DNA of 64,000 nt, from NCBI GenBank assembly GCA_024694145.1, contig JAILKD010000036.1, forward strand, positions 7,066 to 71,065, given 5' to 3'. Below the pieces are notes generated by a model. The model had not been told where the DNA came from. It worked only from the letters and a program-made list of their open reading frames with translations, and made no database searches. Shown here in pieces: positions 1 through 63,845 of the stretch (within the stretch, counting starts at the first letter, position 1; every line of letters starts with the position of its first letter). The position numbers and the translations under genes are program-made. The DNA is from a bacterium (GTDB lineage Bacteria; Bacillota_I; Bacilli_A; Acholeplasmatales; JAEDCM01).

Positions 1-560
1 TTATAACAATCATCTAATCTTTCTAAATCTCTAATTAACATATTCGCATAAGCTAATAATTGGTGAGATAATAATATTGGTTGTGCTCTTTGAAGATGAG
101 TATAACCTGGCATAATTAAATCAATATTTTGTTTTGAAACAAATAATATTTCCTTAATTAAGCTTTTAACAAGATTCTTTATTTCAAGTATTTCTTTTTT
201 AGTATACATTCTAAAATCTAAAGCTACTTGATCGTTTCTACTACGTGCTGTATGAAGTTTCTTACCAACTAAACCAATTCTTTTTGTAAGTTGTTCTTCA
301 ACAAACATATGAATATCTTCAGCTTCATAGTCTATTTCAAGTTTTCCACTTTCAATATCACTTAAGATTTCTTCTAGCGTTTTAATAATTAAATCAGATT
401 CATCACTTGTAATAATACCACACTTACCTAGCATAAAAGCATGAGCCATTGAGCCAGTGATATCTTCTTTATACATACGAGAATCAACTCTAATAGATGA
501 ATTAAAATCATTTACTTCTTTATTTTCTTCTTTACTAAATCTTCCGGCCCACATTTTCAT
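1..560 (-). CDS. argH: argininosuccinate lyase, 5' portion (gene runs off the window start)
   Basis: Absent from the ORF track because no stop lies in the window. Minus-strand ATG at 558-560 is preceded by GGAGG. Translation MKMWAGRFSKE...GKKLHTARSRNDQVALDFRM...PGYTHLQRAQP shows fumarate-lyase/ASL signatures. Lies directly downstream of argG. Confidence 0.9.
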   Translation of the reverse strand, partial: MKMWAGRFSKEENKEVNDFNSSIRVDSRMYKEDITGSMAHAFMLGKCGIITSDESDLIIKTLEEILSDIESGKLEIDYEAEDIHMFVEEQLTKRIGLVGKKLHTARSRNDQVALDFRMYTKKEILEIKNLVKSLIKEILFVSKQNIDLIMPGYTHLQRAQPILLSHQLLAYANMLIRDLERLDDCY

Positions 561-619
561 ATGTCATACCTCCTACTTTTATGCTAAATAAGCCCAGTAT
601 TTGACTGGGCATATTTAAT

Positions 620-1837
620 TTATTTTAATTTCTTTTGATTTAATAATGCCTTAACCTTAATTGGTAGACCATATAGGTTAATGAATCCTGCAGAATCTGC
701 TTGATCATAAACATCATCTTCACCAAATGTAGCTACTTCTTCACTATATAATGAATATGGGCTAGTTATGCTAGAAGGAATGATATTTCCTTTGTATAGT
801 TTAACTTTTACACTACCAGTAACTGTTTCTTGAGTCTTATCAACGAATGCTGATAGAGCTTCTCTAAGTGGTGTAAACCATTTTCCGTTATATACTAATT
901 CAGCGAATTCAATAGCAATTCTTTGTTTGAAATGTTGAGTATCTCTTTCAAGAGTAATAGATTCAAGTAATTCATGTGCTTCATAGATGATAGCTCCACC
1001 TGGAGTTTCATAAACACCACGGCTCTTCATACCTACTAATCTATTTTCGACCATATCAACTAAACCGATACCGTTATCTCCACCAAGTTTATTTAATTTT
1101 TTAACAAGTTCAGTAGCACTCATTTTTACACCATCAAGTCCAACTGGTTTACCTTTTTCAAAATCAATTGTTACATATGTAGGAGTATCTGGTGCTTTCC
1201 AAGGTGATACACCCATTTCTAGAATCTTATCATATTGAGGTTCATTTTTAGGACTTTCAAGATCTAATCCTTCATGTGATAAGTGCCAAATATTCTTATC
1301 CTTTGAATAGTTAGTTTCTCTATTTATCTTAAGAGGAATATTGTGTGCAATAGCATAATCAATTTCTTCATCACGACTCTTGAATTCCCAGAATCTCCAA
1401 GGTGCAATAATTTGCATTTCAGGCGCAAATGCTTTAATAGCTAATTCAAAACGTACTTGGTCATTACCTTTACCTGTACATCCATGACAAATAGCATCGC
1501 ATCCTTCTTTTTTAGCAATTTCTACAACTCTTTTTGCGATGATAGGACGAGCAAATGAAGTACCTAACATATATTTGTTTTCATACTTTGCTCCTGCTTT
1601 AACTGTTTCAAATACATAATCAGTTAAGAATTCTTCTGTTAAATCTTCAATATAGATTTTAGAAGCTCCTGTTTTAATTGCTTTTTCTTCTAGCCCTTCA
1701 AGTTCATCAGATTGACCACAGTTACCACAAATAGCAATAACTTCACATCCATAATGATCCTTTAACCAAGGAATGATAATTGAAGTATCAAGTCCACCAG
1801 AATAAGCTAAAGCAACTTTTTTAAATTTCTTTTCCAT
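620..1837 (-). CDS. argG: argininosuccinate synthase
   Basis: Contains the [15 protein letters not shown]-loop and [13 protein letters not shown]. Start moved to ATG 1837 because the ORF-track start at 1852 sits inside its own GGAGG ribosome-binding site. Confidence 0.95.
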
Positions 1838-13660: not shown

Positions 13661-13690
13661 AAAAAAAGTCATTTTCATGACTTTTTTATT
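13661..13690. terminator. bidirectional intrinsic terminator (small ORF / ftsZ)
   Basis: A7-AGTCAT-TTTC-ATGACT-T6, flanked by A and T runs on both sides. Confidence 0.7.
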
Positions 13691-14819
13691 TTTTCTGTTG
13701 TAACCAATCTGGAAGATTTGGATTAATATTTGTTTGCTTCTTTTCTTCAGGCTTATTATAACTTTGTTCATAAGAATCATTAGAATCATCAGTCATTCTT
13801 ATATCAGCTGAGCTAACTGGCTTAGTTCCAAACAAATCAACTTGTTCAGTATCATCTTTCTTTAAATCATAACCTGTAGCAATTACTGTAATAACTACTT
13901 CATCGCCTAAATCTTCATTGATTGTAGAACCATAAATTATATTTAATTCTGAAGTAGATGCTTGTCTAATTTCTTGAACTGCTGCTGCTTGTTCAAACAT
14001 TGTAATTGATGTAGATGCAGAAATATTAACAATTGCATCTGTTGCACCATCAATTGAAACTTCAAGCAATTGTGAATGAATTGCACGTCTAGCTGCTTCA
14101 ATTACTCTATTATCACCAGATCCAACACCAATACCCATTAATGCTGTACCTTTATTTTCCATAACTGTCTTTACATCGGCAAAGTCAATATTAATCATAC
14201 CCGCAGTAGCAATAATTTCAGCTATTGCTTGTACACCTTGACGAAGTGTATTATCTGCTTCTCTAAAAGCTTCAATAACAGTTGCTTTAGGTCCTACAAC
14301 TGATAATAATTTTTCATTTGGGATAACTAAAAGAGTATCTACATGAGGTTTAAGTGCATTTAAACCATTAATTGCTTCACGCATTCTTGCTGGACCTTCA
14401 AAATCAAATGGTTTTGTAACAATGGCAACTGTTAAACATCCTAATTCTTCAGCAATTTCAGCAATTACTGGAGCGGCACCAGTTCCTGTTCCACCACCCA
14501 TACCAGCTGTGATGAATACCATATCAGCACCTTCAAGTGCTGCTCTTATTTCATCTTGAGTTTCAAGTGCTGCAGCTCTACCAACCTCTGGTTTAGCTCC
14601 TGCTCCTAGTCCTCTAGTTAGTTTTTTTCCTAATTGAATTCTGTTTTCACATCTTGAGATTCTAAGTACTTGCGCATCAGTATTTGCAACAATATATTCA
14701 ACACCTTGAACATCATTGTCAATCATTCTTCCAACGGCGTTTCCTCCACCGCCACCAACACCGATTACTTTTATTACAGGTTTTTGGTTAAATCCCCCAC
14801 CATTATCATTAAAAAGCAT
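13686..14819 (-). CDS. ftsZ: cell division protein FtsZ
   Basis: [10 protein letters not shown] and [11 protein letters not shown] tubulin signatures, plus a C-terminal NLPDWL partner-binding peptide. Start set to ATG 14819 (GAGAGGAG RBS upstream). The 41-codon ORF-track extension is AT-rich read-through. Confidence 0.95.
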
Positions 14820-14931
14820 AGATACACTCCTCTCAAAAAAAATAGTTATTCTATAAATTATTTTACTACATTTTATGTAATAAATAAAGGTAGTTATAAG
14901 ACATTTATTAATATTTTTTATTAATAATTTT

Positions 14932-15285
14932 TTATTTAGCAAGCAAAATAATTAGTTTTAATTCATTGATATAATCACTATCAGTTTTTACTTTATAAAT
15001 TAGATTATCACTTATGTTTGTTTGACCTTTGATTGTATTAATAATTTGTTTAATAACATCTTCACTTAATTCTTTTTGTGACTTTATTTTTACTATTGAT
15101 TTAGTATAATCTAAGTAATTATCATTAAGTGCTTCTTTTATACTTTCAACAATTTTCCCATCATTAATTTTAATCTTTATTATTTTTGAATCAACCCCAT
15201 CAATAACATACCCGTAATTTGCTTTGGTGATTGTTGGGAAATCTGAATCATTAAAAAAATCTCTTAACATAAAAAACATAAACAT
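14932..15285 (-). CDS. hypothetical protein upstream of ftsZ
   Basis: ORF with GGAG 10 nt upstream of ATG 15285. No recognisable motifs. Confidence 0.4.
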
Positions 15286-15316
15286 AAGTATCACACTCCA
15301 ATTTGATTATAACATA

Positions 15317-31020: not shown

Positions 31021-31572
31021 TCACATCCTTGTTAGAAGCTTAAGTGCTTCTTTAATTAAAGATTCAATTGGTAAATCCATATCAAGTTTCTTTTCGACTT
31101 TTTCGATATCTTTTTTACCATATCCAAGTGATGATAATGCTTCTGCAAGTTCTGATTTACTAGAAGTATTACTAACATCAAAATTAATTTTTCCTTTTAA
31201 ATCAAGTACAATTTGTTGACTTGCTTTTGCCCCAATTCCAGGGAACTTAGTTAAGTATGTAGCATTACCTAAATCAATAGCATCAACTATACCCTTAACA
31301 TCACCAGTAGCAAGTATTGATAAAGCACTCTTTGGGCCAATGCCATTAACACTTATTAATTTTAAAAACAATTCTTTTTCTTCATAAGTTTTGAAGCCAT
31401 ATAAATCAATAGCATCATCACTTACTTTTTGATATAAGTAAATAGTTACCTCATCGTATAATTTAAATACATATGGGTTAGGCATCTTAATTAAATAGCC
31501 GATATTATTATTTTCAAGTTCGATATATGATGGATTAATTTTTGTAATTAAGCCTTTAATATAAGCATACAT
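31021..31572 (-). CDS. ruvA: Holliday junction DNA-binding protein RuvA
   Basis: MYAYIKG..., HhH motifs ([21 protein letters not shown]), upstream of ruvB. Confidence 0.9.
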
Positions 31573-31833
31573 AATAGATACCTCCTTTTTTTACTAATAC
31601 CTATATGATTATATCATATAATTTATTTTTTTCCTATATTTTTTTTAATTTGAAATCTATTTTTCATTATTTTTTCAAAATGTTAAAAAAAGGCTAGTTT
31701 ACGCAATTATCTAGACTTTTATATTAAACAATTTAAAAAATATGATAGAATAATTGTTTAATTATAGTTCAAAAGAAAAAACAATTTTAACATAAAATGT
31801 TAAAACATAATAGTAATTTATGCATAAAAATTG

Positions 31834-31839
31834 TATAAT
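31834..31839 (+). promoter_or_regulatory. candidate -10 box for the coiled-coil gene
   Basis: TATAAT lies 25 nt upstream of the ATG at 31864. No convincing -35 element. Confidence 0.35.
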
Positions 31840-31863
31840 AGATATGATTGGAGGTGTATTAAT

Positions 31864-34800
31864 ATGGCTGGTATAAATGACTATATTTCAAAAAACGCAA
31901 ATGAACTAGTTGAAGAATTTTTAACTATCCTAAATGAATTAATTCAAGACCATAACACCTCTACTTCTAAGACAAGAGATAACCTTTTAAACTGTATAGA
32001 AAGCAACAAAAAGAATAACCTTAATTCTAAAAAAAGATGTGATGAAACATTACTTGATTTAGATAATCAAGAAAAAGAATTAAGCCCAAAATATGCAGTT
32101 GAAAATGATAAAATTCAAGAAAAGAATGAAGCGAGAATTGAAGCTAATAATAACTCAATTGCTGAATATAAGAAAATTTATAAAGATGGAATTAATGAGA
32201 TAAATAAAAAATATGATTTAGTTGTTAATGAAGAAAATGATAGATTAGAAAACCTTCAACATTTAAACAGAAAAGAGTTACAACACTATCTACAACAAAT
32301 AGATGCTGAAGAAATAACTCAAAGAAAAGAATTAGAATCAACTATTGAAGAATTGACTAAAAAGATTAGAAAAACACAAGAATCATTAATTATAAATATA
32401 GAAGATTTAAGACACGATTATTTAATAAAATCATCTGGATTTAACGATGATATGCGTAAGACTAGAAATGAATTTATTGATAAAGAAAAAGAACTTAGAG
32501 CAATATCTAGGGAAGAGACTTCTACTCACCATAAGCAAATTGAAGAATTAACAAAAGAAATTTCTAATAAACAAAAAAATATATTAAATACATTTAGTAC
32601 TAATTTTATGGATTTATCAAATTTAGATGATAAAATCTTACTTGAAAATGCTAACGATCAAATTAAATTACTTACTTTACAAGCTAAAAACAAAGAGAAA
32701 AAAAGAATTCTTGAAATTCAAAAGGATAACGATTTATTATTAGAAAAGGAAAAAGATAATACAAAAATCAGAAATCTAAAGATTATTAAGCAAGATATTG
32801 ATAACCAAAATACAACAAGAATTAATAGAGAAAATGTATACTCTTTGATGCGTATTTCTGAATTTGAAAAAGATTCACTTTTAAGTGATGCTATTAAGGA
32901 AAACAAAATTAGTGGTATTTCACTTGATTCAAATGCTAAAATCAATAGATTACACGAAAAACTAAATGATAAGAAAAATGACTTAGATTTTTTCTTAAAA
33001 CGTTTTGATTTGCTTAGAAACTCTAAAAAAAGAACTATTGAATTATATTCACATTTATACGATGTTACTACAACACTAGTATTAGATTTAAATCAATTGG
33101 AACGTGAATATGTTTTAGAACAACAAAAAGCTATTTTAGATAAGAAAATAGAAGATATTAATTATTTAAATAAGGTTAGCGAATATGAATGTAATAAAGA
33201 ATTAGCTATTAATAATTTAAAGTTAGAATTAGAAACTATAGAGTTTGAAATACAAAAAATTAATACTTCATTTGATCATGCTGTATTTAAAACAAGATCA
33301 TCATATAACACTGAAAAAACTCGTATTGAGCACATTTATCAGATGTTTGATTCTAAATATAATACTGAATTAAAAGCTCTAGAAACAGATATTACATTTA
33401 TTTATGCCATAATTGAAAAACTAAAAGAAGAAATAATAAGAACAACTTCTACTGCTATTGATGAGCAAAAGAAGGAAAAAGAATCAACAGATAAAATAAC
33501 TGCATTCTATAAAATGATGACTTCTGAATTTAATTTCATGAAGGAACAAGTAGATAATTATTATAGTAATAAAGATTTAAGATTCACTCCAGATGTAGAT
33601 GAAATAATTAATGACTACATAAAAGCTTCAATTGATAAAAAAAGAGCTTTTGAAAGTGAATTCAAAGAATTAACAAACAAAACACAACTAATTGAAACTG
33701 AAATAAAAGAAATTGAAAATGATATATTTATGCTTGAAGCAAATAGAAAATCATTTATTGAAAAATCAAAGAGAGCATATGATGATAAATATGAACTTAG
33801 AGAATTTGATGAACAAATTGAAGAAAAAGCATTTAGACTTCATATACTTCGTTTACGTTTAAAATCTCAAGCAAAAGAAATGTCAAATCTTGAAAGTGAA
33901 ATGCTTAGAATTGATGAAGGTAAAGATGTATTTGCTAAAAAAGAAAACAAGAGACTATATGAACTTGATTTTGATAATACTTACTTTAATAAGTATGAAG
34001 ACTTACAAGAGACTATTTCAACAATGTTTAATCAGCTATTAACACTTGCTGAATCTTCACTTGAAAAAAATGATTTAAAATCTCTTTATTCATTTAGCTC
34101 AAGTGCCATTAAACATCTTAACAAAGCCACTTCTTCTATTAAATCATTCCATTTTGATACTATTAATGAATATAAAAATGAATTCAAGAAAATCGCAAAG
34201 GTTTGTGCAAACAACATTGAAAAGGAAAAGAAAACATTTGAGATTAATCTTGATATGATTAATAGAGAACGTGATATTGCTATTGATGATGAACAATCAA
34301 AAATAGTAATTGCAAAGAAAAGCTCTAGGGACTTAGAAGTAAAATATAATGTTGATATAATTAACATTAAGCAAAAATCAGATGAAAGACTATCAACAAT
34401 AGATAATGAGCTTAATGATTATAATATCAGATACGGCTTAAATGTTGCTGCACTAGAATCTAATGCAAGTTCTATGAAAAGCTATTATGATGATGCTATA
34501 GCTAAAGAGACAAAAGATAGAGTAGCAACTCTTGCTAATCTTTATAAAGAGCGTAAAATTAATAAGCTTTTATATGAAGATAACTTAGGTAAACTAAGAT
34601 CTAATTATAATATTGAAAAAGAAAAGAATATTATTCAAGCTAAGACTAGAATAAATAACGTATTAAGGCAATATATGCAAAAATGTATGGAATTTGATAT
34701 ACAGTTAAAGAGTCTTGATGATGCACTTAGAAAATCAAGTGCTGAATGTAATAGTGCAATAATTGATTCAGATGTTCAATTAAATGACTTTATCAAGAAA

Positions 34801-34920
34801 CTTGAAAATAATAAAAACTACGATATCAAAAAGGTTAAAGCAGAAACAAATAAGAAGCTTAAACATGATATTAAGCGTTATAAAATTGAAATTGAAAATA
34901 AAAATGAGGCTAATATTTAG
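31864..34920 (+). CDS. 1018-aa coiled-coil protein, function unknown
   Basis: ATG 31864 follows GGAGG (31850-31854); the ORF-track start is an upstream TTG. The sequence is K/E/N/I/L-rich and heptad-like throughout. I saw no Walker motif, signal peptide or TM helix. It has its own terminator. Confidence 0.7.
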   Translation: MAGINDYISKNANELVEEFLTILNELIQDHNTSTSKTRDNLLNCIESNKKNNLNSKKRCDETLLDLDNQEKELSPKYAVENDKIQEKNEARIEANNNSIAEYKKIYKDGINEINKKYDLVVNEENDRLENLQHLNRKELQHYLQQIDAEEITQRKELESTIEELTKKIRKTQESLIINIEDLRHDYLIKSSGFNDDMRKTRNEFIDKEKELRAISREETSTHHKQIEELTKEISNKQKNILNTFSTNFMDLSNLDDKILLENANDQIKLLTLQAKNKEKKRILEIQKDNDLLLEKEKDNTKIRNLKIIKQDIDNQNTTRINRENVYSLMRISEFEKDSLLSDAIKENKISGISLDSNAKINRLHEKLNDKKNDLDFFLKRFDLLRNSKKRTIELYSHLYDVTTTLVLDLNQLEREYVLEQQKAILDKKIEDINYLNKVSEYECNKELAINNLKLELETIEFEIQKINTSFDHAVFKTRSSYNTEKTRIEHIYQMFDSKYNTELKALETDITFIYAIIEKLKEEIIRTTSTAIDEQKKEKESTDKITAFYKMMTSEFNFMKEQVDNYYSNKDLRFTPDVDEIINDYIKASIDKKRAFESEFKELTNKTQLIETEIKEIENDIFMLEANRKSFIEKSKRAYDDKYELREFDEQIEEKAFRLHILRLRLKSQAKEMSNLESEMLRIDEGKDVFAKKENKRLYELDFDNTYFNKYEDLQETISTMFNQLLTLAESSLEKNDLKSLYSFSSSAIKHLNKATSSIKSFHFDTINEYKNEFKKIAKVCANNIEKEKKTFEINLDMINRERDIAIDDEQSKIVIAKKSSRDLEVKYNVDIINIKQKSDERLSTIDNELNDYNIRYGLNVAALESNASSMKSYYDDAIAKETKDRVATLANLYKERKINKLLYEDNLGKLRSNYNIEKEKNIIQAKTRINNVLRQYMQKCMEFDIQLKSLDDALRKSSAECNSAIIDSDVQLNDFIKKLENNKNYDIKKVKAETNKKLKHDIKRYKIEIENKNEANI

Positions 34921-34930
34921 CCTCTTTTTT
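34906..34930 (+). terminator. intrinsic terminator of the coiled-coil gene
   Basis: GAGGCTAA-TAT-TTAGCCTC followed by TTTTTT, overlapping the stop codon. Confidence 0.75.
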
Positions 34931-36197
34931 AATCAATGAATTCGAATTCATATTCAAATATTTTAACAATATCTCCGTTTTGTACACCTAATTTTCTAAG
35001 TTCTTCATCTATTCCCATAACCTTAAGTTGTCTAGCAAATCTACGTGTAGCTTCATAACTAGAGAAATCAGTCATTTCAAATAAACGTTTTAATCCTGCA
35101 CCTGTAATATTATATACTCCATCAATCTTTTCAATTTTATATTTTTCTTCTTCAGGAGTAAAATTATATTCAGCAACAAAATCTTTATCCTCATACATCT
35201 TAAATTCAGGTGTAACATCAAGTAAATCTCTTATCCTATAAAGAAGTGGAGTTAGTCCTTCTTTAGTATATGCTGAAATAGGGAAAATCTCTTTATTAAC
35301 GTGTTTTTTAAACTCTTCTAGGTTCTTTTTAGCATTTGGTAAATCCATTTTATTAGCAACTATTATTTCAGGACGTTCTAATAAATCAAACTTATAGCTT
35401 TCAAGTTCCTTTCTTATTTTAACATAATCAGTATAAGGATTTCTTCCATCTACGCTTGCCATATCAATAACATGTACTATAACTCTACAACGCTCAATAT
35501 GTCTTAAGAATTCTAATCCTAAACCTAAACCTTGGCTTGCTCCTTCAATTAAGCCTGGAAGATCTGCAACAACAAAGCTACGACCATCAGGTACTCCTAC
35601 AACACCTAAATTAGGGTTTAGAGTTGTAAAGTGATAAGCTGCAATTTTTGGTCTAGAATTACTTATAGCGCTAATTAGTGTAGATTTACCAACAGATGGA
35701 TAACCTACCAACCCACAATCAGCTAATACTTTTAATTCTATTCTAATATTCTTTTCAATGCCTGCTTCTCCTTTTTCACAGATTGCAGGGCATGGATTTT
35801 TATGAGTTGCAAATGCGCAGTTTCCTCTTCCTCCGCGTCCACCTTTAGCAACAACTATTTCTTGTCCATGCATAGTAATATCACCTATTACTTTATTTAA
35901 ATCATTATCATAAATAGTTGAACCAAGTGGTACTTTTACATAGGTATCAGTAGCATTACGTCCATTCATTCCCTTACTCATACCACGTTCACCTGGGTTA
36001 CCTTTAATGTGTCTATTATATCTAAAATCTAATAATGTTGATAATCCTTCATCACCAACAAATATAATAGATCCACCATTACCTCCAGAGCCACCCCAAG
36101 GTCCACCAAATTCAATATATTTTTCTCTACGATAACTAATTATACCATTTCCACCAGCGCCACTAGTGACTTTTATTTTTACTTCATCTACAAACAT
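34929..36197 (-). CDS. obg: GTPase Obg/CgtA
   Basis: MFVDEVKIKVTSGAGGNG glycine-rich Obg fold, the G-domain motifs GYPSVGKST, DLPGLIEGA and NKMD, and a C-terminal TGS-like OCT domain. Confidence 0.95.
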   Translation of the reverse strand: MFVDEVKIKVTSGAGGNGIISYRREKYIEFGGPWGGSGGNGGSIIFVGDEGLSTLLDFRYNRHIKGNPGERGMSKGMNGRNATDTYVKVPLGSTIYDNDLNKVIGDITMHGQEIVVAKGGRGGRGNCAFATHKNPCPAICEKGEAGIEKNIRIELKVLADCGLVGYPSVGKSTLISAISNSRPKIAAYHFTTLNPNLGVVGVPDGRSFVVADLPGLIEGASQGLGLGLEFLRHIERCRVIVHVIDMASVDGRNPYTDYVKIRKELESYKFDLLERPEIIVANKMDLPNAKKNLEEFKKHVNKEIFPISAYTKEGLTPLLYRIRDLLDVTPEFKMYEDKDFVAEYNFTPEEEKYKIEKIDGVYNITGAGLKRLFEMTDFSSYEATRRFARQLKVMGIDEELRKLGVQNGDIVKIFEYEFEFID

Positions 36198-51016: not shown

Positions 51017-54000
51017 TTATGCAGCTACAATAGTTGCACCATTATCTTTAGCAACCTTAAATCCATAATTGCTTTCATAATTATCGACATTAGGTACTTT
51101 TAATGTAAATTTAGTTGGATCGCTAAATGTTTCAACATCAATACTAGGTGGTGTAACACTATTAAATGTTATTGTACCAGCAGTTTGAACTTGGAACACA
51201 CGTTTACCAATGTTATTTACATTTTCTGGAACTACAAAGCTTGTTAGATTATTACATCCATTAAATGTATCATCATTAATTGCATTACAATTTGTACTCC
51301 AATTAACTGTAGTAAGCGCTGAACATGTATTGAATGCACCTACACCAACATATGTAACACTATCAGGAATAGTTGCTGTAGTAATAGATTTACATTCTTT
51401 AAATGCATTGCCTAAAATTTGTTCAAGTACTGTTGTCTTTCCTTCTACTTGTAAGAAGTTTAAATTAGCAATCTTAGTTCCTTCAAATGCACTTTCGCCA
51501 ATAGTTCTAATTTTTTCTACATTAATTGATACTTCTGCAAGCTCTGTACATTTTGCGAAGAAGTTATTACTAATACCAGTAATATCTAGAGCAGATAGGT
51601 TAGCAGATACTAAGCTTTCAGATTCAGAGAAAGCATCTGGTCCTAAATTAATTACTTTTGCACCTAATGTTAATGAAGTAATACCAGATTTATAGAATGC
51701 TTTTTGGCCAATTGATACATTATTTGTACCAGTACCAAGAGCTAATTCTATTGATAAAGCACCACATTCTTCAAATGCTTCAGCTCCAATTGATAAAATA
51801 TTACCAAATGCAAAGCTTCCAATTCCACTCTTGTAGAATGCTCTACTACCAATTGCATTAATTGTAGTATTATCAGTCATATCAACTGTTGTTAAACTAG
51901 CGCATTCTTCAAACATTGAATTACTAATTAAAGTAACCTTTAATGCTTTTAAATTAGCACTTGATAATGTTGAACCTAAGAATGTGCCTTCACCGATTTC
52001 AGTAACTTTTGCTCCAAGAGCAACATTTGTTATGCCACTATATTGGAATGCGCCTTCACCTATAATTAGACCAACACCATCATTTTCTGTACCGATGTTA
52101 ATTACATCAGTAACACCAGTAAATGGTCTTGGATATTTGAAAGCATCAGTGCTATCTTTTTCGCCACTATTTGCAAATGCAAATGATCCTATTTTGTTAA
52201 CGCTCTTTGGAACAATTCCTTTATATGGAGTATTAAAGAATGCTTCATCACCAATAATTTTAATGTTTCCATTATTAGCTGTTTCCCAATCAACATTTTC
52301 TAACATATAGCAACTCTTGAATGTTCCAGCTGGGATTTCTTGAATTTTTTCAGGAATAACTAAATTATTAATTGATACAGCACCTTCAAATGCACTTTCA
52401 CCAAATGTTTGAAGTGATGTAGGTAAAACTAAATTAGTTAAACATCCACAATTTAAGAATGCGTTAGATCTAATTTCTCTAATAGTGTTTGGTAGATTAA
52501 TTGTTGTTAAAGCCATACAATTTGCAAATCCACCATTAGCAATATACTCAATCTTATTATTTGTAGCAAATTCTACATTCTTCAATGTAATACATCCACT
52601 AAATGCATTATCTCCCATAGCTTCAACATTCTTAGAAATTGTGAAGTTCTTTAAGTTTGTACAACCTGAGAATGCATCTTCACCGATAAATACTAATCTA
52701 GATGAGTTTATATCAATATTAACTTCACTTAATGTTAAGATATTGTTAAATGCTTTTTTATGAATTCTTTCAACTGTATTAGGAATAGTAATACTTACTA
52801 AAATTGTATTTTGGAATGTTCCGTTAGGAATTTCTTTCAAATTAAGTTTATCATCTTCAACACTTGGTTCAAATGTAACTTCATGTAATGATTTACAACC
52901 AGCAAATATAGATTCTCCAAGAATTATACCATTTGATGGAATAATAACATTTGTAATACCTGATCCGGCAAATGCATTAGAACCAATTTCTTTTACGTTA
53001 GCCATACCAATAAATTCTGTTAAGCTTTCGCAGCCTTCAAATGCATTCATACCAATCTTTGTAATAACACCATGTTCTGTATCCTCTAATTGAACAGTAC
53101 TAATTGCTGTAAAGCCTTTAAACATATTAGCAGCAAGTTCAATTTCAGTACCCTTTAACACAATCTTAGATAATGTATTTTTTAATGTTCCAACAGTATC
53201 ACCAAATATTTGTTCTAAGCTACTTGTACCAAAAACTTTGACTTCATCTATTTTTGTACATCCTTCAAGAACTGCCTTACCAAGTTTTTCATTAGCACCT
53301 AAATCATTTACGAACTCAAATGATGTGATTGCTTGGCAGCCTGAGAATGCTTTATCACCCATTGAAGTTAAATTTTCATTTGTTTTATTTATTTTAATTA
53401 GTAAGCATCCACTAAACGCTTCAGCTCCTAAAGTTTTTAATTCAGCAGGTAGTGCATTTAATTCAAGATTAACGCATCCTTTAAATGCTGCATCACCAAT
53501 AGTTGTAATGCTATCATTTAATGAATTGATCACTAAATTAGAGCATCCATCAAATGCATGTGCACCAATTGATGTAATATTTTCGTTAATTGTAAATGTA
53601 GAAATTGACGAATCGTTTTGGAATAATCCTTCGCTTATTAATACAACATTTTCAGGAAGAGCATCAATAACTAATTTACCACAATCTGCAAAAGCATATT
53701 TACCAGCTTTAGTTAAACCATTAGGTAATGCTAATGTTTCAATTCCACCGCATCCTTTGAATGCTTCTTCACCAATTTCAGTTACTGTTTCAGGAATAAT
53801 TATTTCACTTACTAATATACATCCGCTAAATGCCTTTCCTTCAATTATTTCAGTTCCAGCTAAAACTTTTATTGAATTAATTGTTTGGGCAACAGTTTCT
53901 CTTGATTCTCCGAATAATGAATCAAGACCATATTCTCCTCTTGTTTCAAGAGTAGTTACATTTGTATCTCCAACAAATGCATTTGGTTCTACAATTGTTC

Positions 54001-55642
54001 CTGAAGAGAATTTGATTGATGTAATATTAATACAATTAGTAAATGCGAATTGTTTAACAACAGTAACAACATTTGCACCTGTTATAATATTTACTTCATC
54101 TATTTCTGAGCATCCTTCAAATGCATTTTCTCCTATTGTTTCAATGTTTGCAGAGAATGTTGGAGTAGGAATTGCTGTATTTCTAAATGCATTAGCACCA
54201 ATAAATATAATATTGTCTAATGATAAAGTGCTTACTTTAACACATCCATCAAATCCACCTTCTCTTACTTTTGTAACTGTTGATGGTAATGTAACTGCCT
54301 CAAGGTTAATACAATTTTTAAATGTATTCTTAGAAATTTCAGTTAAGCCTTCATTTAATGTTATTTCAGTTACTCCTGTACATTCTTCAAATGCACTTTC
54401 ACCCATTGCTTTAACAGTATTAGCCACATCAAGTGTAACTAGATTTGCACATCCTTTATAGGCATTAGCTGCAATTTTATCGCCTGTTACATGAAGTTCT
54501 ACTAGTGACTTTCTAACTTGTGGAGCGTAACTAGTAAATATAGTTGCAATTGATAAACTTCCATTTGCAGTTAATTTCTCAATTTTTTCAAGTGGAATAA
54601 GAACATATTCAATTGGTTCTCCTTCTTTGTAATCTCTATCAACAATTTGTCTTTCATATTGTGTGAAAGCATTATTTCCGATTACAATATCAGATCCAGC
54701 CTTTATATTTAATTCTGTCAAACCTGCATTTACGAATGCTTCATCACCAACTGCTGTTAAACTTTCTGGCAATGTAACAGTTGTAGTTTTTTGAGTATTA
54801 TAGAAAGCTTTTGCTCCGATTTCTTTTATACCGTTATTAAACTTAATAGAACCTAGTTCTGTACAACCTCTAAATGCATTAGCACCAATCTTAGATAATT
54901 TTGTATTGCTAGAAAAATCTAATGCAGTGATTCCAACGCATCCCGAGAATGCCGATTGATCTATACTTGTAAGATTTGTAGCACTATCAAATGTTATAGT
55001 TGATAAACTACTACACTTTTCAAAAGCACTATCTGAAATAGTAACTAGTGTTTCAGGTAAATTGATACCTGTTATTTTATTACAATTGTAGAAGGCAAAT
55101 GGTCCAATAATTTCAAGATTTGATTCACTTGCTATTGTTACATTAGTTAATGTTTCTACATTTTGGAATGCTTCATATGAAATTGACTTTACACTTGCAG
55201 GAATTGTAATTGATGAAATTTTTGTTCCTAAAAATGCTTTAGATGGAATAGTTGTGATTTGTGGATTAGATCCAAATTCTACTGTTTCAAGATTTGAACA
55301 ATTCATAAATCCATTTCCATTGAAATAAACTAAGTTATCTGAAAAAACAACTTTTGTTAAATCTTTATCATCAGCATATGTAAATGAAACTCTTGTAACC
55401 TTGGCATTATTTTCACCAATAGTATTTGGAATAGTTAATGTAGCTCCTTGTTTTTCTATTTCAACAATTTCAGCCTCACCATTAAATTCCTTATATTTCA
55501 TCTTAAGGTTCTTGTCATATTTTATTTCATCATCAACAGGTGTTGGTTCAGTTTTTTGACTCTTTCCACAACCAGCAAAAATAAAAGCTGCTGAAGCTAT
55601 GGATAAAACTGAAAGTACCTTTAACATCATTTTCTTTTTCAT
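51017..55642 (-). CDS. giant BspA-type leucine-rich-repeat surface lipoprotein (1541 aa)
   Basis: Lipobox IFAGCGKS. Dozens of tandem ~23-25-aa LRR_5-type units run through the whole protein (e.g. VKSISYEAFQNVETLTNVTI, LTSIDQSAFSGCVGITALDF). Confidence 0.85.
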   Translation of the reverse strand: MKKKMMLKVLSVLSIASAAFIFAGCGKSQKTEPTPVDDEIKYDKNLKMKYKEFNGEAEIVEIEKQGATLTIPNTIGENNAKVTRVSFTYADDKDLTKVVFSDNLVYFNGNGFMNCSNLETVEFGSNPQITTIPSKAFLGTKISSITIPASVKSISYEAFQNVETLTNVTIASESNLEIIGPFAFYNCNKITGINLPETLVTISDSAFEKCSSLSTITFDSATNLTSIDQSAFSGCVGITALDFSSNTKLSKIGANAFRGCTELGSIKFNNGIKEIGAKAFYNTQKTTTVTLPESLTAVGDEAFVNAGLTELNIKAGSDIVIGNNAFTQYERQIVDRDYKEGEPIEYVLIPLEKIEKLTANGSLSIATIFTSYAPQVRKSLVELHVTGDKIAANAYKGCANLVTLDVANTVKAMGESAFEECTGVTEITLNEGLTEISKNTFKNCINLEAVTLPSTVTKVREGGFDGCVKVSTLSLDNIIFIGANAFRNTAIPTPTFSANIETIGENAFEGCSEIDEVNIITGANVVTVVKQFAFTNCINITSIKFSSGTIVEPNAFVGDTNVTTLETRGEYGLDSLFGESRETVAQTINSIKVLAGTEIIEGKAFSGCILVSEIIIPETVTEIGEEAFKGCGGIETLALPNGLTKAGKYAFADCGKLVIDALPENVVLISEGLFQNDSSISTFTINENITSIGAHAFDGCSNLVINSLNDSITTIGDAAFKGCVNLELNALPAELKTLGAEAFSGCLLIKINKTNENLTSMGDKAFSGCQAITSFEFVNDLGANEKLGKAVLEGCTKIDEVKVFGTSSLEQIFGDTVGTLKNTLSKIVLKGTEIELAANMFKGFTAISTVQLEDTEHGVITKIGMNAFEGCESLTEFIGMANVKEIGSNAFAGSGITNVIIPSNGIILGESIFAGCKSLHEVTFEPSVEDDKLNLKEIPNGTFQNTILVSITIPNTVERIHKKAFNNILTLSEVNIDINSSRLVFIGEDAFSGCTNLKNFTISKNVEAMGDNAFSGCITLKNVEFATNNKIEYIANGGFANCMALTTINLPNTIREIRSNAFLNCGCLTNLVLPTSLQTFGESAFEGAVSINNLVIPEKIQEIPAGTFKSCYMLENVDWETANNGNIKIIGDEAFFNTPYKGIVPKSVNKIGSFAFANSGEKDSTDAFKYPRPFTGVTDVINIGTENDGVGLIIGEGAFQYSGITNVALGAKVTEIGEGTFLGSTLSSANLKALKVTLISNSMFEECASLTTVDMTDNTTINAIGSRAFYKSGIGSFAFGNILSIGAEAFEECGALSIELALGTGTNNVSIGQKAFYKSGITSLTLGAKVINLGPDAFSESESLVSANLSALDITGISNNFFAKCTELAEVSINVEKIRTIGESAFEGTKIANLNFLQVEGKTTVLEQILGNAFKECKSITTATIPDSVTYVGVGAFNTCSALTTVNWSTNCNAINDDTFNGCNNLTSFVVPENVNNIGKRVFQVQTAGTITFNSVTPPSIDVETFSDPTKFTLKVPNVDNYESNYGFKVAKDNGATIVAA

Positions 55643-57580: not shown

Positions 57581-59299
57581 TTATAATCCTTGACGTAAAG
57601 CTTGAAGAGCTCTGAATAATAATACTCTATAATCTTCAGCAGTCTTAATGTATTCTTTTTGATTATCTAATCTAAATAGAATCCATTCAGTAATAGGATT
57701 TTGATTTTCTTGTAATTTAGCTCTAATTTCAGCTTCTGGTTTAGTAAGCTTCTCTGGTGGTAAATTTTTGAAGAATTCATTTGCAGCTTTCTTTAATTCT
57801 TCGAAGTTAGTCTTTTGAACTGATGAACCTTTACCAATTTGGAAAGTATCAGCAAATGATTGACCATCTTCATGAACTTCTTTTGCAATAACTTCAATCT
57901 TACCAGAGTTATCTACTCTTAAAGTTACATCTACTGGAACTTTATCAACTGAATCATGGAAGTTTTGAAGTTCAATCTTACCTAAAATTTGGTTTTCAGG
58001 AGATTCAACATTTAAATCTTTACCTTGAACTACATAAGCAGTAACTGCTTTTTGTCCCTTACCAGCTGTATAGAATCTTTCTACTACTTCATAAGGAATA
58101 GGTGTATTTTCAAGCATCATGTATTGAACGAATCCACCAGCAACTGTAATTCCAAGTGGGTTAGTTAAAATTTCGTTTAAGAATGATTCTTTCTTATTAC
58201 CCATAATTGAAGCTTGGATAGCAGCACCACGTGCAACGATTAAATCTGGATCACTATCAGAAATTTCTACACCTGGGAATGCACTTCTAATCATGCTTCC
58301 AACTAGTGGAATACGAGTAGAACCACCAACTAAGATAATTCTTTGGATTTCGCGTCCTCCAACAACTTTCTTAGCCATTTCAACTGTTTGGTTAACAAGT
58401 GAACCAATCATATTTTCAAATTGAGTCTTTGTTAATGAATATTCAAGAATAATTCTTTGTCCTTGAATACGAATCATATCTGTACCTTTAACTTCATCTT
58501 GTTTAGATAAAGCAATTTTGATTTTTTCAGAAATACCATAACTTCTCTTAATGAATTCTTTTTTGAAATCTTCTTTTCCTTCATATTTTCTACCTTCATC
58601 AGTAGATACATATGAATTATATAAGAATTCAGAAATCTTTTCATCGAAGTTCTTACCACCGATAACTGAACCATCAGTTCTAACAGCTTGATAGAATCTA
58701 ACTCCATCAACGTTTTCACATTCTAGTAAAGTAGCATCAAATGTTCCACCACCAAGGTCAAATGCAAGTACGTTTGATGCATCTTCTACATCTTCACCAT
58801 ATGCAAGTGTTGCACTTGTTGGTTCGTTGATTAAACGAATTTCATGAGTTGGATTAAATCCTGCATCTCTAGCAGCTTGTTCAGTTGAACGTCTTTCGTT
58901 ATCTTTGAAATAAGCTGGAACAGTGATAACTAAATCTTCAACTTCATTATCTGGATATAATTCATCTAGTCCGTCTTTGATATATTTTAATACCTTAGCA
59001 GAGAATTGTTCTGGGTTTAATTTAACTCCGTTATATTCTTCTGTATATGCATCACCTTTATCCATGTTGATTTTCATATGTTTCCAAGCATCCATGTATA
59101 AATCTGCATTGTTCTTAACTTTTTCTCCAACAAGGAATTTATCTGCAGCTTTGTCATAGTAAACTACTGAAGGGTAAATACCTGACATACTTCCGTGTAA
59201 ATATTGAAGAACTGGTTGATTTGTTACATCAGAATAAATATAGCATTCAGAGTTTGTAGTTCCTAAGTCAATACCTACTGTTAATTTTATATTACTCAT
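57581..59299 (-). CDS. divergent Hsp70-family ATPase (non-DnaK paralogue type, short lid)
   Basis: GIDLGTTNS, ITVPAYF, NEPTSATLAYG, DLGGGTFD and ILVGGSTRIP actin-fold/Hsp70 motifs, with a beta-sandwich-like region (LGITVAGG...). At 572 aa, sequence outside the motifs differs strongly from housekeeping DnaK. Confidence 0.85.
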   Translation of the reverse strand: MSNIKLTVGIDLGTTNSECYIYSDVTNQPVLQYLHGSMSGIYPSVVYYDKAADKFLVGEKVKNNADLYMDAWKHMKINMDKGDAYTEEYNGVKLNPEQFSAKVLKYIKDGLDELYPDNEVEDLVITVPAYFKDNERRSTEQAARDAGFNPTHEIRLINEPTSATLAYGEDVEDASNVLAFDLGGGTFDATLLECENVDGVRFYQAVRTDGSVIGGKNFDEKISEFLYNSYVSTDEGRKYEGKEDFKKEFIKRSYGISEKIKIALSKQDEVKGTDMIRIQGQRIILEYSLTKTQFENMIGSLVNQTVEMAKKVVGGREIQRIILVGGSTRIPLVGSMIRSAFPGVEISDSDPDLIVARGAAIQASIMGNKKESFLNEILTNPLGITVAGGFVQYMMLENTPIPYEVVERFYTAGKGQKAVTAYVVQGKDLNVESPENQILGKIELQNFHDSVDKVPVDVTLRVDNSGKIEVIAKEVHEDGQSFADTFQIGKGSSVQKTNFEELKKAANEFFKNLPPEKLTKPEAEIRAKLQENQNPITEWILFRLDNQKEYIKTAEDYRVLLFRALQALRQGL

Positions 59300-59354
59300 T
59301 GTAATTCCTCCCTTAAACGGTTTTATAGTTTTTAAATATACTTATCATAATATC

Positions 59355-59383
59355 ATTTTACCACACATTTCCAATATATTCAA
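59355..59383 (-). promoter_or_regulatory. internal promoter upstream of hsp70
   Basis: Minus strand has TTGAAT (59383-59378), a 17-nt spacer ending in TG, and TAAAAT (59360-59355), within the 119-nt gap after the GrpE-like gene. Confidence 0.5.
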
Positions 59384-59418
59384 TATATGAAATATCAAGA
59401 AATAGCGTAATTCTTTTA

Positions 59419-61107: not shown

Positions 61108-61113
61108 AATTTA

Positions 61114-63807: not shown

Positions 63808-63845
63808 CACCTCAATTTAATACTGTCATTTCGTCTCTAATATAT

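Follow-up and report, generated by a model that had tools for sequence, protein, structure and literature searches.

A 64,000-nt stretch of DNA from a bacterium of the order Acholeplasmatales (the window) carries a gene for a protein of 1018 residues, P0001. We observed that this gene is real and conserved, that it lies next to the ruv operon across the order, and that its product is helical and has homologues over three families. Its place next to that operon is ancestral and holds throughout the order. As to what the protein does, we tentatively favour, at somewhat less than even confidence, a cytoplasmic, non-enzymatic rod scaffold from an undescribed and very fast-evolving family that has stood beside the ruv genes since before the Acholeplasmatales diversified. 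Wall-less bacteria have to manage membrane, division and chromosome with no sacculus to rely on, and to our knowledge the structural proteins of such bacteria beyond Mycoplasma and Spiroplasma are barely known.

The gene and its position beside the ruv operon

The gene, its signals and its two nearest neighbours are given below in window coordinates.

31864..34920, plus strand: coding sequence of P0001, 1018 residues and stop (ORF list and translation)
31834..31839, plus strand: candidate -10 box TATAAT, kept in the alignment with genus relatives
31850..31856, plus strand: ribosome-binding site GGAGGTG, with the ATG 7 nt downstream, kept in the relative whose sequence extends there
34906..34924, no strand assigned: bidirectional intrinsic terminator over the stop codon, common to the convergent obg (8-bp stem, 4 G-C pairs)
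31021..31572, minus strand: ruvA, the conserved divergent neighbour and first gene of ruvA-ruvB-queA-PPIase-tgt
34929..36197, minus strand: obg, the convergent neighbour (neighbour annotation)

The reading frame, its own ribosome-binding site, the candidate -10 box and the terminator had all been named in the original prediction, and each of them was borne out. Two genus relatives could be aligned over the -10 box and the ribosome-binding site; they are identical to each other in that stretch, and so amount effectively to one comparison. As promoter-like sites in the region occur at the level of chance (27 found against 29.5 expected in a consensus scan), it is conservation that speaks for the -10 box. 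The terminator hairpin has T runs on either strand, and the corresponding scan found 2 terminator-like sites where 0.5 were expected. For parts of the gene there are RNA-library contigs (four libraries, four studies) with ~97–99% identity; these contigs are strandless and may contain DNA.

The surroundings are on the minus strand, as predicted: the flank that ends with ruvA holds tgt, PPIase, queA and ruvB as well, and the opposite flank consists of obg, L27, Prp and L21. A search of the host genome found the gene in one copy, and there are no mobile or defence genes among its neighbours. Its G+C content (22–26%, against ~30%) fits the K/N/I-rich composition of the product. Horizontal acquisition was considered and is ruled out by synteny across the family and the order.

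The gene had been taken for an isolated one, inserted into a core region. This did not hold, as the same position beside the ruv operon is kept across the order. Poor conservation or absence even in close relatives, which had been named as grounds for rejecting the original reading, is not what we see: the gene is conserved in relatives. Full-length reading frames are present in all three genomes of the genus, and a sequence search recovered 18 full-length relatives of 1016–1018 residues with 63–91% identity and no indels, together with remoter ones at 44, 37 and 24% identity (1018–1026 residues). Repeating the search with alignment A2 returned the same 19 proteins, while the distant member P0027, used as query, found only itself.

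Outside the genus, an ORF of about 1008–1216 residues that is poor in proline and glycine (≤1.6%) diverges from ruvA in 13 of the 13 evaluable Acholeplasmatales genomes, which come from five families. At further loci, ruvA lies within the flank in 29 of 30 cases in family f2 and in 29 of 30 in family f3; obg does so at 22 of 30 f3 loci and at 0 of 30 f2 loci. In the neighbouring family f19, a similar ORF diverges from ruvB at 21 of 22 loci, the operon there beginning with ruvB and not ruvA. A search that used one f3 protein found no homologue in 19 genomes of genus g25, which has the smallest genomes of the order (0.5–0.8 Mb). One f2 genome has a broken copy, with 1 TAA and a longest frame of 820 residues. 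In genomes of 1–2 Mb, the gene is among the largest.

Homology and rate of divergence

Profile–profile comparisons show full-length homology that joins the window's family with two other families of the order at ~14% identity. The window's family and f2 aligned by hhalign with an E-value of 7e-12 over 897 colinear columns, compared with 0.005 for the reversed control and 0.002–0.03 for four block-shuffles; upon circular permutation the matching half was kept. Families f2 and f3 aligned with an E-value of 1.3e-19 over 1038 columns (reversed control, 1e-3). Full-length matches to a 49-sequence order-wide profile were obtained for 20 of 30 proteins from f3, 7 of 7 from f4 and 5 of 11 from f2. Homology across families emerged solely when profiles were used on both sides; hhalign of A2 against single positional counterparts gave probabilities of only 0.7–2.2%. 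The case of f19 is different. The f3–f19 comparison reached an E-value of 9e-10, but its reversed control reached 1e-5; f2 against f19 scored below its own reversed control, and the window's family against f19 was neither above control nor colinear. From their position, size and composition, the f19 proteins are probably related to the order-wide family.

The protein diverges much faster than its neighbours. Towards the same two genomes, P0001 has 65% and 24% identity where RuvA has 82% and 62%, the lower pair of values being that between two f1 genera, and within one GTDB genus of f2 identity is 22–27%. Relaxed constraint or an arms race would also fit such divergence. Because identity falls to ~14% even as length and helicity are kept, the gene is invisible to Pfam, NCBIfam and ordinary searches.

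Searches of Pfam, NCBIfam and PDB with the protein and its alignments gave either no match or generic coiled coils, which agrees with the earlier view that the product belongs to no named family and is not SMC, EzrA or DivIVA. At E-values up to 1, P0001 had no SMC, RecN, SbcC or AAA match in Pfam or NCBIfam, and DivIVA (PF05103) was not among its Pfam matches. EzrA (PF06160) matched neither P0001 nor the host genome, and did match the control genomes. The Walker A pattern [AG]xxxxGK[ST] is absent from P0001, as had been stated, and occurs in 0 of 22, 1 of 26, 0 of 24 and 0 of 20 members of four groups; CxxC is absent from P0001 as well. DUF3287 (PF11690) aligned to residues 574–633 with 20.5 bits, below its cut-off of 27; 7 of 10 family members match this model at E-values up to 0.1, with P0001 scoring best. 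Profile matches to Smc and Rad50 coiled-coil fragments had E-values of 8.5e-5 to 5.5e-4. ESM Atlas scores did not exceed 0.85 for P0001 and an f3 counterpart; the two have the top cluster, an unnamed one, in common, which is a lead only.

TIGR02168 matches the host genome at other loci only, and a separate SMC-like protein of ~1070 residues is encoded on another contig. In six of six genomes tested, one of them outside the family, canonical SMC (TIGR02168) fell below cut-off, an observation that is uninformative on the P0001 gene.

Neither BLAST self-comparison nor hhalign of 110-residue profile segments (all probabilities <8%, best 7%) detected internal repeats in P0001, and a recurring K/T-T-R motif, considered as a possible repeat, did not stand up. 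At the level of titles and abstracts, we found no literature on such a protein.

Predicted architecture of the protein

The product had been described as rich in K, E, N, I, L and D, and these six residues do make up 61.8% of it. Proline and glycine together account for 0.9%, the lowest value among the 60 longest ORFs (≥500 residues) listed from the genome. Also as predicted, P0001 has no signal peptide and no transmembrane helix, the top 19-residue Kyte–Doolittle mean being 0.63. Two further claims, that the chain is coiled coil end to end and that heptad-like periodicity runs throughout, were not sustained. Two AlphaFold models (pLDDT 73.9 and 79.8, pTM 0.42–0.44) are nearly all helix, and both split the chain into about ten helices; segments 187–266 and 316–346, of low confidence in the first model, are confidently helical in the second, for which the alignment was deeper. 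We measured hydrophobic periodicity in 28 windows of 70 residues, each compared with the 95th percentile of its own shuffles. It exceeded the shuffles in 14 of them, 13 of which had a best period of 3.50–3.72. The significant windows lay mostly at 3.58–3.66, only two being at 3.50–3.54, and this period of ~3.6 differs from that of a canonical two-stranded coiled coil.

From the models and the alignments, the following parts can be delimited.

31864..32646, plus strand: N-terminal helical domain, residues 1–261 (helices 12–113 and 117–261 in the model)
32659..33474, plus strand: arm 1, residues 266–537, predicted as a single long helix, less confident at 391–420
33076..33114, plus strand: arm 1 joint motif, residues 405–417 (L405 invariant; L407, D408, E413, V417)
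33481..34074, plus strand: tip domain, residues 540–737, short helices and hairpin 579–634/641–691, in both models
34075..34911, plus strand: arm 2, residues 738–1016, predicted as a single long helix, less confident at 851–880
34435..34476, plus strand: arm 2 joint motif, residues 858–871 (N867 invariant; G858, A863, M871)
34798..34917, plus strand: basic C-terminal tail, last 40 residues (net charge)

In the N-terminal domain, the modelled turn at 114–116 adjoins Y117, which is invariant in the 49-sequence order-wide alignment together with N194; N125 and F244 are near-invariant. The hydrophobic period over residues 1–245 is 3.58–3.66. The tip domain is all helix with identical helix boundaries in both models. 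Its hairpin matches many unrelated hairpins (Z 9–11.6), and in distant relatives 14 residues are inserted at the loop. The tail has a mean net charge of +5.0 (n=22), +4.7 (n=26) and +7.0 (n=24) in three subfamilies, compared with a whole-protein average of ~0 per 40 residues.

The lengths of the arms are kept. Arm 1 measures 271 residues here and 278 and 277 in the other two subfamilies, and arm 2 (taken as 738–1000) has 262 against 263 and 266, at ~14% identity between subfamilies; the differences in length fall in the N-terminal domain, which takes most of them, and in the tip. This suggests that geometry rather than sequence is under selection. Thirteen of the 30 most conserved columns lie in the confidence dips 101–140, 391–420 and 851–880, which comprise 10% of the chain, and the arm 1 joint motif sits in the second of these. 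Conserved segments do not coincide with low-confidence segments in general (Spearman over all blocks -0.06, p 0.57); the clustering of the top 30 columns alone holds.

The ranges over which structural matches align, together with a split-chain prediction, suggest a folded-back chain. Of the structural matches, the folded cohesin elbow 7ogt_B scores best (VIA Z 11.5, 388 residues, model range 263..1016), and several short chains align over model range 232..1016; all structural matches have Z ≤12, where the noise level of the tool for helical models is ~13. When residues 266–537 and 738–1016 were predicted as separate chains, the score was 0.46 (runs of 0.47, 0.44 and 0.46) against 0.00 for the best of three controls, which lends the pairing weak support. 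In the three runs contacts agreed at ≥96% and the partner pLDDT was ≥83. In calibration, 116 of 157 solved complexes and 2 of 215 mismatched pairs came up to the mark, with only 18 of those 157 complexes, plus both passing mismatches, at scores ≤0.60; as our own alignment was used, these counts hold only roughly.

The two long helices, each of ~270 residues, would then pair antiparallel into an arm of ~40 nm. L405 is ~139 residues into arm 1 and the arm 2 motif ~149 residues short of the C-terminal end of its arm, so that in an antiparallel arrangement the two motifs would oppose each other, with L405–V417 facing G858–M871 in a putative joint halfway along the arm. The small helical tip domain may shut the far end, and the N-terminal helical domain together with the basic tail may form the base.

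Possible roles and comparison with known systems

Our best guess for the role is a fixed-length spacer or scaffold, in which the base and the basic tail would grip either a partner protein or an anionic surface, be it membrane or DNA, and the arm would set the distance. The cytoskeletal, scaffolding or division role suggested originally is a plausible guess. The divergent ruv adjacency, found in the 13 genomes and at 58 of 60 further loci and extending to f19, could instead mean that P0001 is an accessory of RuvAB-linked recombination or of the chromosome: a headless SMC/Rad50-like arm bridging DNA through its tail and base, and co-expressed with the ruv operon from a common divergent promoter region. 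The basic tail, the SMC-type arms as best structural matches and the Smc and Rad50 profile matches point the same way. However, the adjacency may be mere inherited synteny and the homology of the f19 proteins is suggestive only. The profile matches are generic, lying amid keratin and adhesin stalks; the protein has no DNA-binding domain, ATPase or hook, and no GAAC-N4-GTTC box of the LexA type was found by eye in the intergenic sequence. We regard this explanation as unlikely, though deserving some weight. A membrane skeleton or remodelling protein, whose amphipathic helices would lie on the membrane or polymerise under it, as is the way of apolipoproteins, PspA/Vipp1/ESCRT-III or BAR domains, appears quite improbable. 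Its basic tail would bind anionic lipid, and the period of 3.58–3.66 comes nearer to that of 11-residue amphipathic repeats (3.67) than to 3.5. The N-terminal profile weakly matches apolipoproteins A-IV and A-I and apolipophorin III (E-values 4e-4 to 0.1), and hairpin 579–691 resembles PspA and Vipp1 (Z 9.3–10.6) and I-BAR (Z 10.1–10.6). The host also seems to be wall-less, as had been supposed: FtsZ was found in its MAG (84% complete), and PBP transpeptidase, MurA, true MreB and EzrA were not. All these matches are nevertheless at the noise level for helical proteins, and the likeness goes no further than that among helical hairpins in general; no PspA/IM30, BAR or apolipoprotein Pfam match was listed for P0001 at E-values up to 1, and the protein lacks internal repeats and a hydrophobic segment.

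The fast divergence within f2 and between the f1 genera could also be that of a conflict protein in an arms race, such as an alpha-helical effector or toxin like the alpha-pore-forming ones of the ClyA family, or a protein acting in defence or anti-defence. The central region 477–775 resembles, in both models, the elongated helical bundle with protruding hairpin of AhlB (6grj), XaxA (6gy6), YaxB (6ek8) and PaxB (6ek4), with Z 10.2–10.6 and rmsd 6.3–10.1 over 218–282 residues, values that are under the helical noise. But P0001 has neither signal peptide nor sequence match to this family, its low hydrophobicity leaves it without a hydrophobic head or tongue, and the region is embedded in 1018 residues. 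Moreover, it occupies a fixed housekeeping position in one copy, away from mobile and defence genes, and keeps its length and colinearity strictly, unlike the usual variable effectors. We therefore consider such a role extremely improbable.

Returning to the rod scaffold, a bolder form of it, which we consider rather improbable, would make P0001 the first member of an undescribed structural element that is lineage-defining for the wall-less Acholeplasmatales and their neighbours. It would act as a fixed-length 'ruler' of coiled coil, folded back and headless, that has stayed with the ruv operon through all of the order's history and that tethers the nucleoid or the machinery of recombination to the naked membrane or spaces them apart. 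If true, bacteria would have a cytoskeletal or chromosome-organising protein of a new kind, SMC-arm-like but motorless. The order includes single-contig genomes; cultured Acholeplasma are likely to carry the gene, and in that case the hypothesis is directly testable. The approach itself, synteny combined with profile–profile alignment and reversed controls, can unite such 'orphans' as one family.

Among known cytoskeletal proteins, crescentin, FilP/Scy and the Helicobacter Ccrp proteins are long, helical, poor in proline and glycine, fast-evolving, lineage-restricted and without enzymatic motifs, and P0001 shares these traits. It differs from them in that a period of 3.50–3.54 is confined to 2 of its 28 windows and in that it is predicted to fold back rather than to form one extended rod. 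EzrA, the spectrin-like regulator of FtsZ, is likewise all-helical and cytoplasmic and comes from a Bacillota lineage with FtsZ. P0001, about twice as long, lacks a PF06160 match, the N-terminal membrane anchor and internal repeats.

The putative fold-back resembles the arms of SMC, Rad50 and MukB. Such proteins (among them cohesin 7ogt_B, Wadjet JetC 9qe0 and MukB 9gm7) gave the best structural matches, with a Foldseek E-value of 2e-4, though with TM-scores of ~0.1 and Z under the helical noise. P0001 differs from them in that it lacks Walker A, an ABC signature or Walker B domain, a hinge and the CxxC hook. Its very long helices are predicted to run out and back like theirs, putatively as an antiparallel intramolecular arm with a discontinuity halfway. 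In SMC arms length is conserved and sequence is not, and the same is seen in the arms of P0001.

Gene, signals and neighbours

The rod gene, which encodes the 1018-aa protein, was found with the ribosome-binding site, candidate −10 box and terminator that the original prediction had described for it. The features are as follows.

31834-31839, plus strand: candidate −10 box, TATAAT
31850-31856, plus strand: ribosome-binding site GGAGGTG, 7 nt 5′ of the ATG
31864-34920, plus strand: rod gene open reading frame, 1018 aa
34906-34924, both strands: terminator hairpin of 8 bp, overlapping the rod-gene stop codon, with T runs on either strand

Both the ribosome-binding site and the −10 box are conserved in the genus alignment, which is in effect one comparison, since the two genus relatives are identical to each other here. 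A consensus promoter scan of the region was at chance (27 sites versus 29.5 expected), and terminator-like sites in the scan numbered 2 versus 0.5 expected. The rod gene and obg, which converge and are 8 bp apart, share this hairpin as their end. All neighbours are on the minus strand. One flank carries tgt, a cyclophilin-type lipoprotein (PPIase), queA, ruvB and ruvA; the other carries obg, L27, Prp, L21, malQ and glycogen genes. We also observed an inverted repeat, AACAT-AAA-ATGTT (window ∼31787-31806), ∼30 nt 5′ of the −10 box, whose right half and next bases (AATGTTAAAACATAATAG) are kept in the genus alignment. This repeat could be an operator in a control region common to ruvA and the rod gene.

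Parts of the rod gene are spanned at ∼97–99% identity by contigs of four RNA libraries, each from a different study and bovine gut metatranscriptomes among them (for example, 627 nt at 32194-32819 with 15 differences; others, elsewhere in the gene, are of 243-289 nt), and ruvA and obg are also covered in two of the four runs. As these contigs are strandless and may reflect DNA carry-over, they lend weak support to transcription of the rod gene.

Family, distribution and homology

The rod protein lies outside any named family, as had been suggested. In Pfam it matched only DUF3287, below threshold (20.5 bits versus a cut-off of 27), a model that 7 of 10 family members matched at E up to 0.1. 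NCBIfam gave no match, PDB sequence searches gave none or generic coiled coils only, and scores in the ESM Atlas were 0.85 or less. Literature listings and abstracts yielded no paper on such a protein.

The rod gene is nevertheless real and conserved. Among 5.8 billion proteins, 18 full-length relatives were found (1016-1018 aa, 63-91% identity), which align without indels; the label of one gives an Acholeplasmatales MAG as its source. Further members at 44, 37 and 24% identity (1025, 1026 and 1018 aa, respectively) came from an exhaustive search of representatives. Profiles of the window's family detected the protein in all three genomes of the genus, so that the absence even from close relatives, which the original prediction had named as refuting, was not seen. 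With the same profiles the family appears tiny: across the order 4/307 genomes matched, each from the GTDB family of the window itself (0/302 in the four remaining families), and in a class sample 1/399. The sequence changes fast: against the same relative, identity was 65% for the rod protein, 92% for Obg, 82% for RuvA and 61% for the PPIase, and against another genus it was 24% for the rod protein and 62% for RuvA.

The gene had been regarded as isolated and inserted, a view that the gene order of relatives contradicts. An ORF of 1008-1216 aa with 1.6% or less P+G and 44-54% K/E/N/D/Q/R is divergent from ruvA in 13/13 evaluable order genomes (G003 and G004 of the own family; G005 of family f2; G020, G029, G071, G017, G023, G010 and G014 of f3; G007 and G024 of f4; G008 of f5), a count that leaves out G006, where ruvA is at a contig end. 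None of these positional counterparts matched Pfam or NCBIfam. An f2 protein used as query matched 46/307 genomes, all f2, with proteins of 1118-1166 aa that are colinear over the full length, yet only 22-27% identical even inside one genus; one f2 copy is apparently broken (longest frame 820 aa). With an f3 protein, 74/172 f3 genomes and 9/20 genera were matched, and none of 19 genomes in genus g25 (0.5-0.8 Mb), 40 in g34 or 10 in g36. Within a 1.5-kb flank, ruvA is present at 29/30 f2 and 29/30 f3 loci, and obg at 0/30 and 22/30, respectively.

Homology between these groups was compared by profiles. Single counterpart sequences against the family profile gave probabilities of only 0.7-2.2%, and a signal appeared only with profiles on both sides. 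The f2 set held 26 of 30 loci (those of at least 1000 aa) and the f3 set 24 of 30 (at least 1100 aa).

Profile-profile comparisons within the order
Window's family versus f2 (22 versus 26 sequences): E 7e-12, score 112, 897 colinear columns, residues 44-1000 on 137-1143; reversed f2, score 37.5, E 0.005
f2 versus f3 (26 versus 24 sequences): E 1.3e-19 over 1038 columns; reversed, E 1e-3
Window's family versus f3 (22 versus 24 sequences): E 8.7e-7 over 425 columns; reversed, E 0.008

For the first pair, four 50-column block shuffles scored 30-40, and a circular permutation retained the matching half (score 74). In a 49-sequence order-wide alignment, Y117, N194, L405 and N867 are invariant, and its profile gave full-length matches in f3 (20/30), f4 (7/7) and f2 (5/11), most of these genomes being outside the profile's inputs. 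We concluded that the rod gene is a member of a hitherto undescribed family that evolves fast, keeps its length and position and is present across Acholeplasmatales.

In other families of the class, none of 21 evaluable loci has such an ORF beside ruvA (a 22nd could not be judged). Outside the order, weak matches of partial length to the order-wide profile came from 10 genomes (E 2e-10 to 9e-4), two of these matches being ORFs of 1180-1185 aa in the neighbouring family f19. There, an ORF of 1163-1204 aa with 1.4-2.8% P+G is divergent from ruvB in 21/22 loci, the exception being a truncated contig. The f3 profile matched that of f19 at E 9e-10, but the reversed control gave 1e-5, and neither f2 nor the window's family against f19 beat its own control. 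The family probably extends to f19 on position, size and composition, whereas the sequences do not establish homology. In f19 the rod-like gene is also followed immediately, on its own strand, by another large ORF poor in P+G (L121:5736-8588, plus, 951 aa, 2.9% P+G; L120:1-2283, minus, at least 761 aa, 3.0%), which may be a tandem paralogue or partner. No comparable second ORF is among the 60 longest listed ORFs of at least 500 aa in the window's genome.

Predicted structure and proposed fold-back

The product is K/E/N/I/L/D-rich, as predicted (61.8% of residues), and its P+G content of 0.9% is the lowest among those same 60 ORFs. Internal repeats were not found. Hydrophobicity periodicity, measured on the family profile in 70-residue windows, exceeded the 95th percentile of its own shuffles in 14/28 windows, and in 13 of these the best period was 3.50-3.72. 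Most periods were 3.58-3.66 and only two were at 3.50-3.54; therefore the protein is built of amphipathic helix and is not the heptad coiled coil throughout that had been proposed.

AlphaFold2 gave pLDDT 73.9 and pTM 0.44 with 19 close sequences, and 79.8 and 0.42 with the 49-sequence alignment. The second model has helices at 12-113 (break at 72), 117-261, 266-537, 542-568, 579-634, 641-691, 711-735 and 738-1016, and confidence dips at 101-140, 391-420, 571-590, 631-640, 686-705 and 851-880. The two long helices, 266-537 and 738-1016, are alike in length with one dip apiece: the dip ∼139 residues from the start of the former holds the invariant L405, and that ∼149 residues from the end of the latter holds N867. 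Of the 30 columns best conserved across the order, 13 are within three dips amounting to 10% of the chain; over all blocks, conservation and pLDDT showed no correlation (Spearman −0.06, p 0.57). The arm lengths are near-constant in three subfamilies (271/278/277 and 262/263/266 residues), and it is in the N-terminal domain and at the tip that lengths differ.

Residues 232..1016 of the model are spanned by the alignments of several short chains, which implies that the first long helix begins next to where the last one ends. In a split-chain test, 266-537 against 738-1016 scored 0.46 (runs 0.47, 0.44 and 0.46, agreeing in at least 96% of contacts, partner pLDDT at least 83), and the best of three controls scored 0.00. 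The mark of this test is reached by 116/157 solved complexes and 2/215 mismatched pairs, and at 0.60 or under by only 18 of those 157 and by both passing mismatches, counts that are only approximate here because a custom alignment was supplied. The test lends weak support to an arm–arm pairing, by which the two arms would lie together in a folded-back chain.

Possible role and comparison with known systems

A motif scan gave neither Walker A ([AG]xxxxGK[ST] type) nor CxxC, and the highest 19-residue Kyte-Doolittle mean is 0.63, with no hydrophobic segment; the predicted lack of Walker A and of a transmembrane helix thus held. In all three subfamilies the C-terminal 40 residues are basic (mean charge +5.0, +4.7 and +7.0, against ∼0 per 40 in whole proteins). 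We tentatively favour a headless, SMC-arm-like, folded-back rod that may act as a cytoplasmic scaffold of fixed length. A role serving the nucleoid and RuvAB is conceivable though unlikely, and one at the membrane somewhat less likely still.

In the host genome (1.57 Mb, 84% complete), a PBP transpeptidase, MurA and EzrA were not found, and the MreB model matched Hsp70s only, the second being the Hsp70 in window 57581-63810. FtsZ is present, its gene lying in the window:

13686-14942, minus strand: ftsZ

It is adjoined by a 120-aa ORF (14932-15294, minus) without a Pfam match, and the scanned ORFs included no ftsA-like neighbour. Separately, a 1541-aa ORF with a lipoprotein-like start (MKKK...FAGCGK; 51017-55642, minus) is one of ∼12 very large predicted lipoproteins of this genome. 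In the sister genus (G003), a LysM protein (137 aa, L008:11284-11697, minus) and a DUF885 protein (586 aa, L008:9479-11239, minus) lie between ruvA and the rod gene; the peptidoglycan-binding LysM domain is unexpected in an apparently wall-less lineage.

The SMC model TIGR02168 stayed below cut-off in the window's genome and five relatives, one of them 100% complete, with weak matches only, to proteins of ∼1050-1090 aa (the host's of ∼1070 aa; contig C97:2016-3986, minus, outside the window); a highly divergent SMC-like protein may be present in the order. Structure searches with the rod model gave only generic long-helix matches, all below ∼13, the tool's noise level for helical models. Below this level, ClyA-family bundles matched residues 477-775 (Z 10.2-10.6), and IpaB, PspA, Vipp1 and prefoldin-type hairpins matched 579-691. 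SMC-type arms were matched by Foldseek at E 2e-4 with a TM of ∼0.1, and the folded elbow of cohesin aligned 388 residues over 263..1016 at Z 11.5, likewise under the helical noise.
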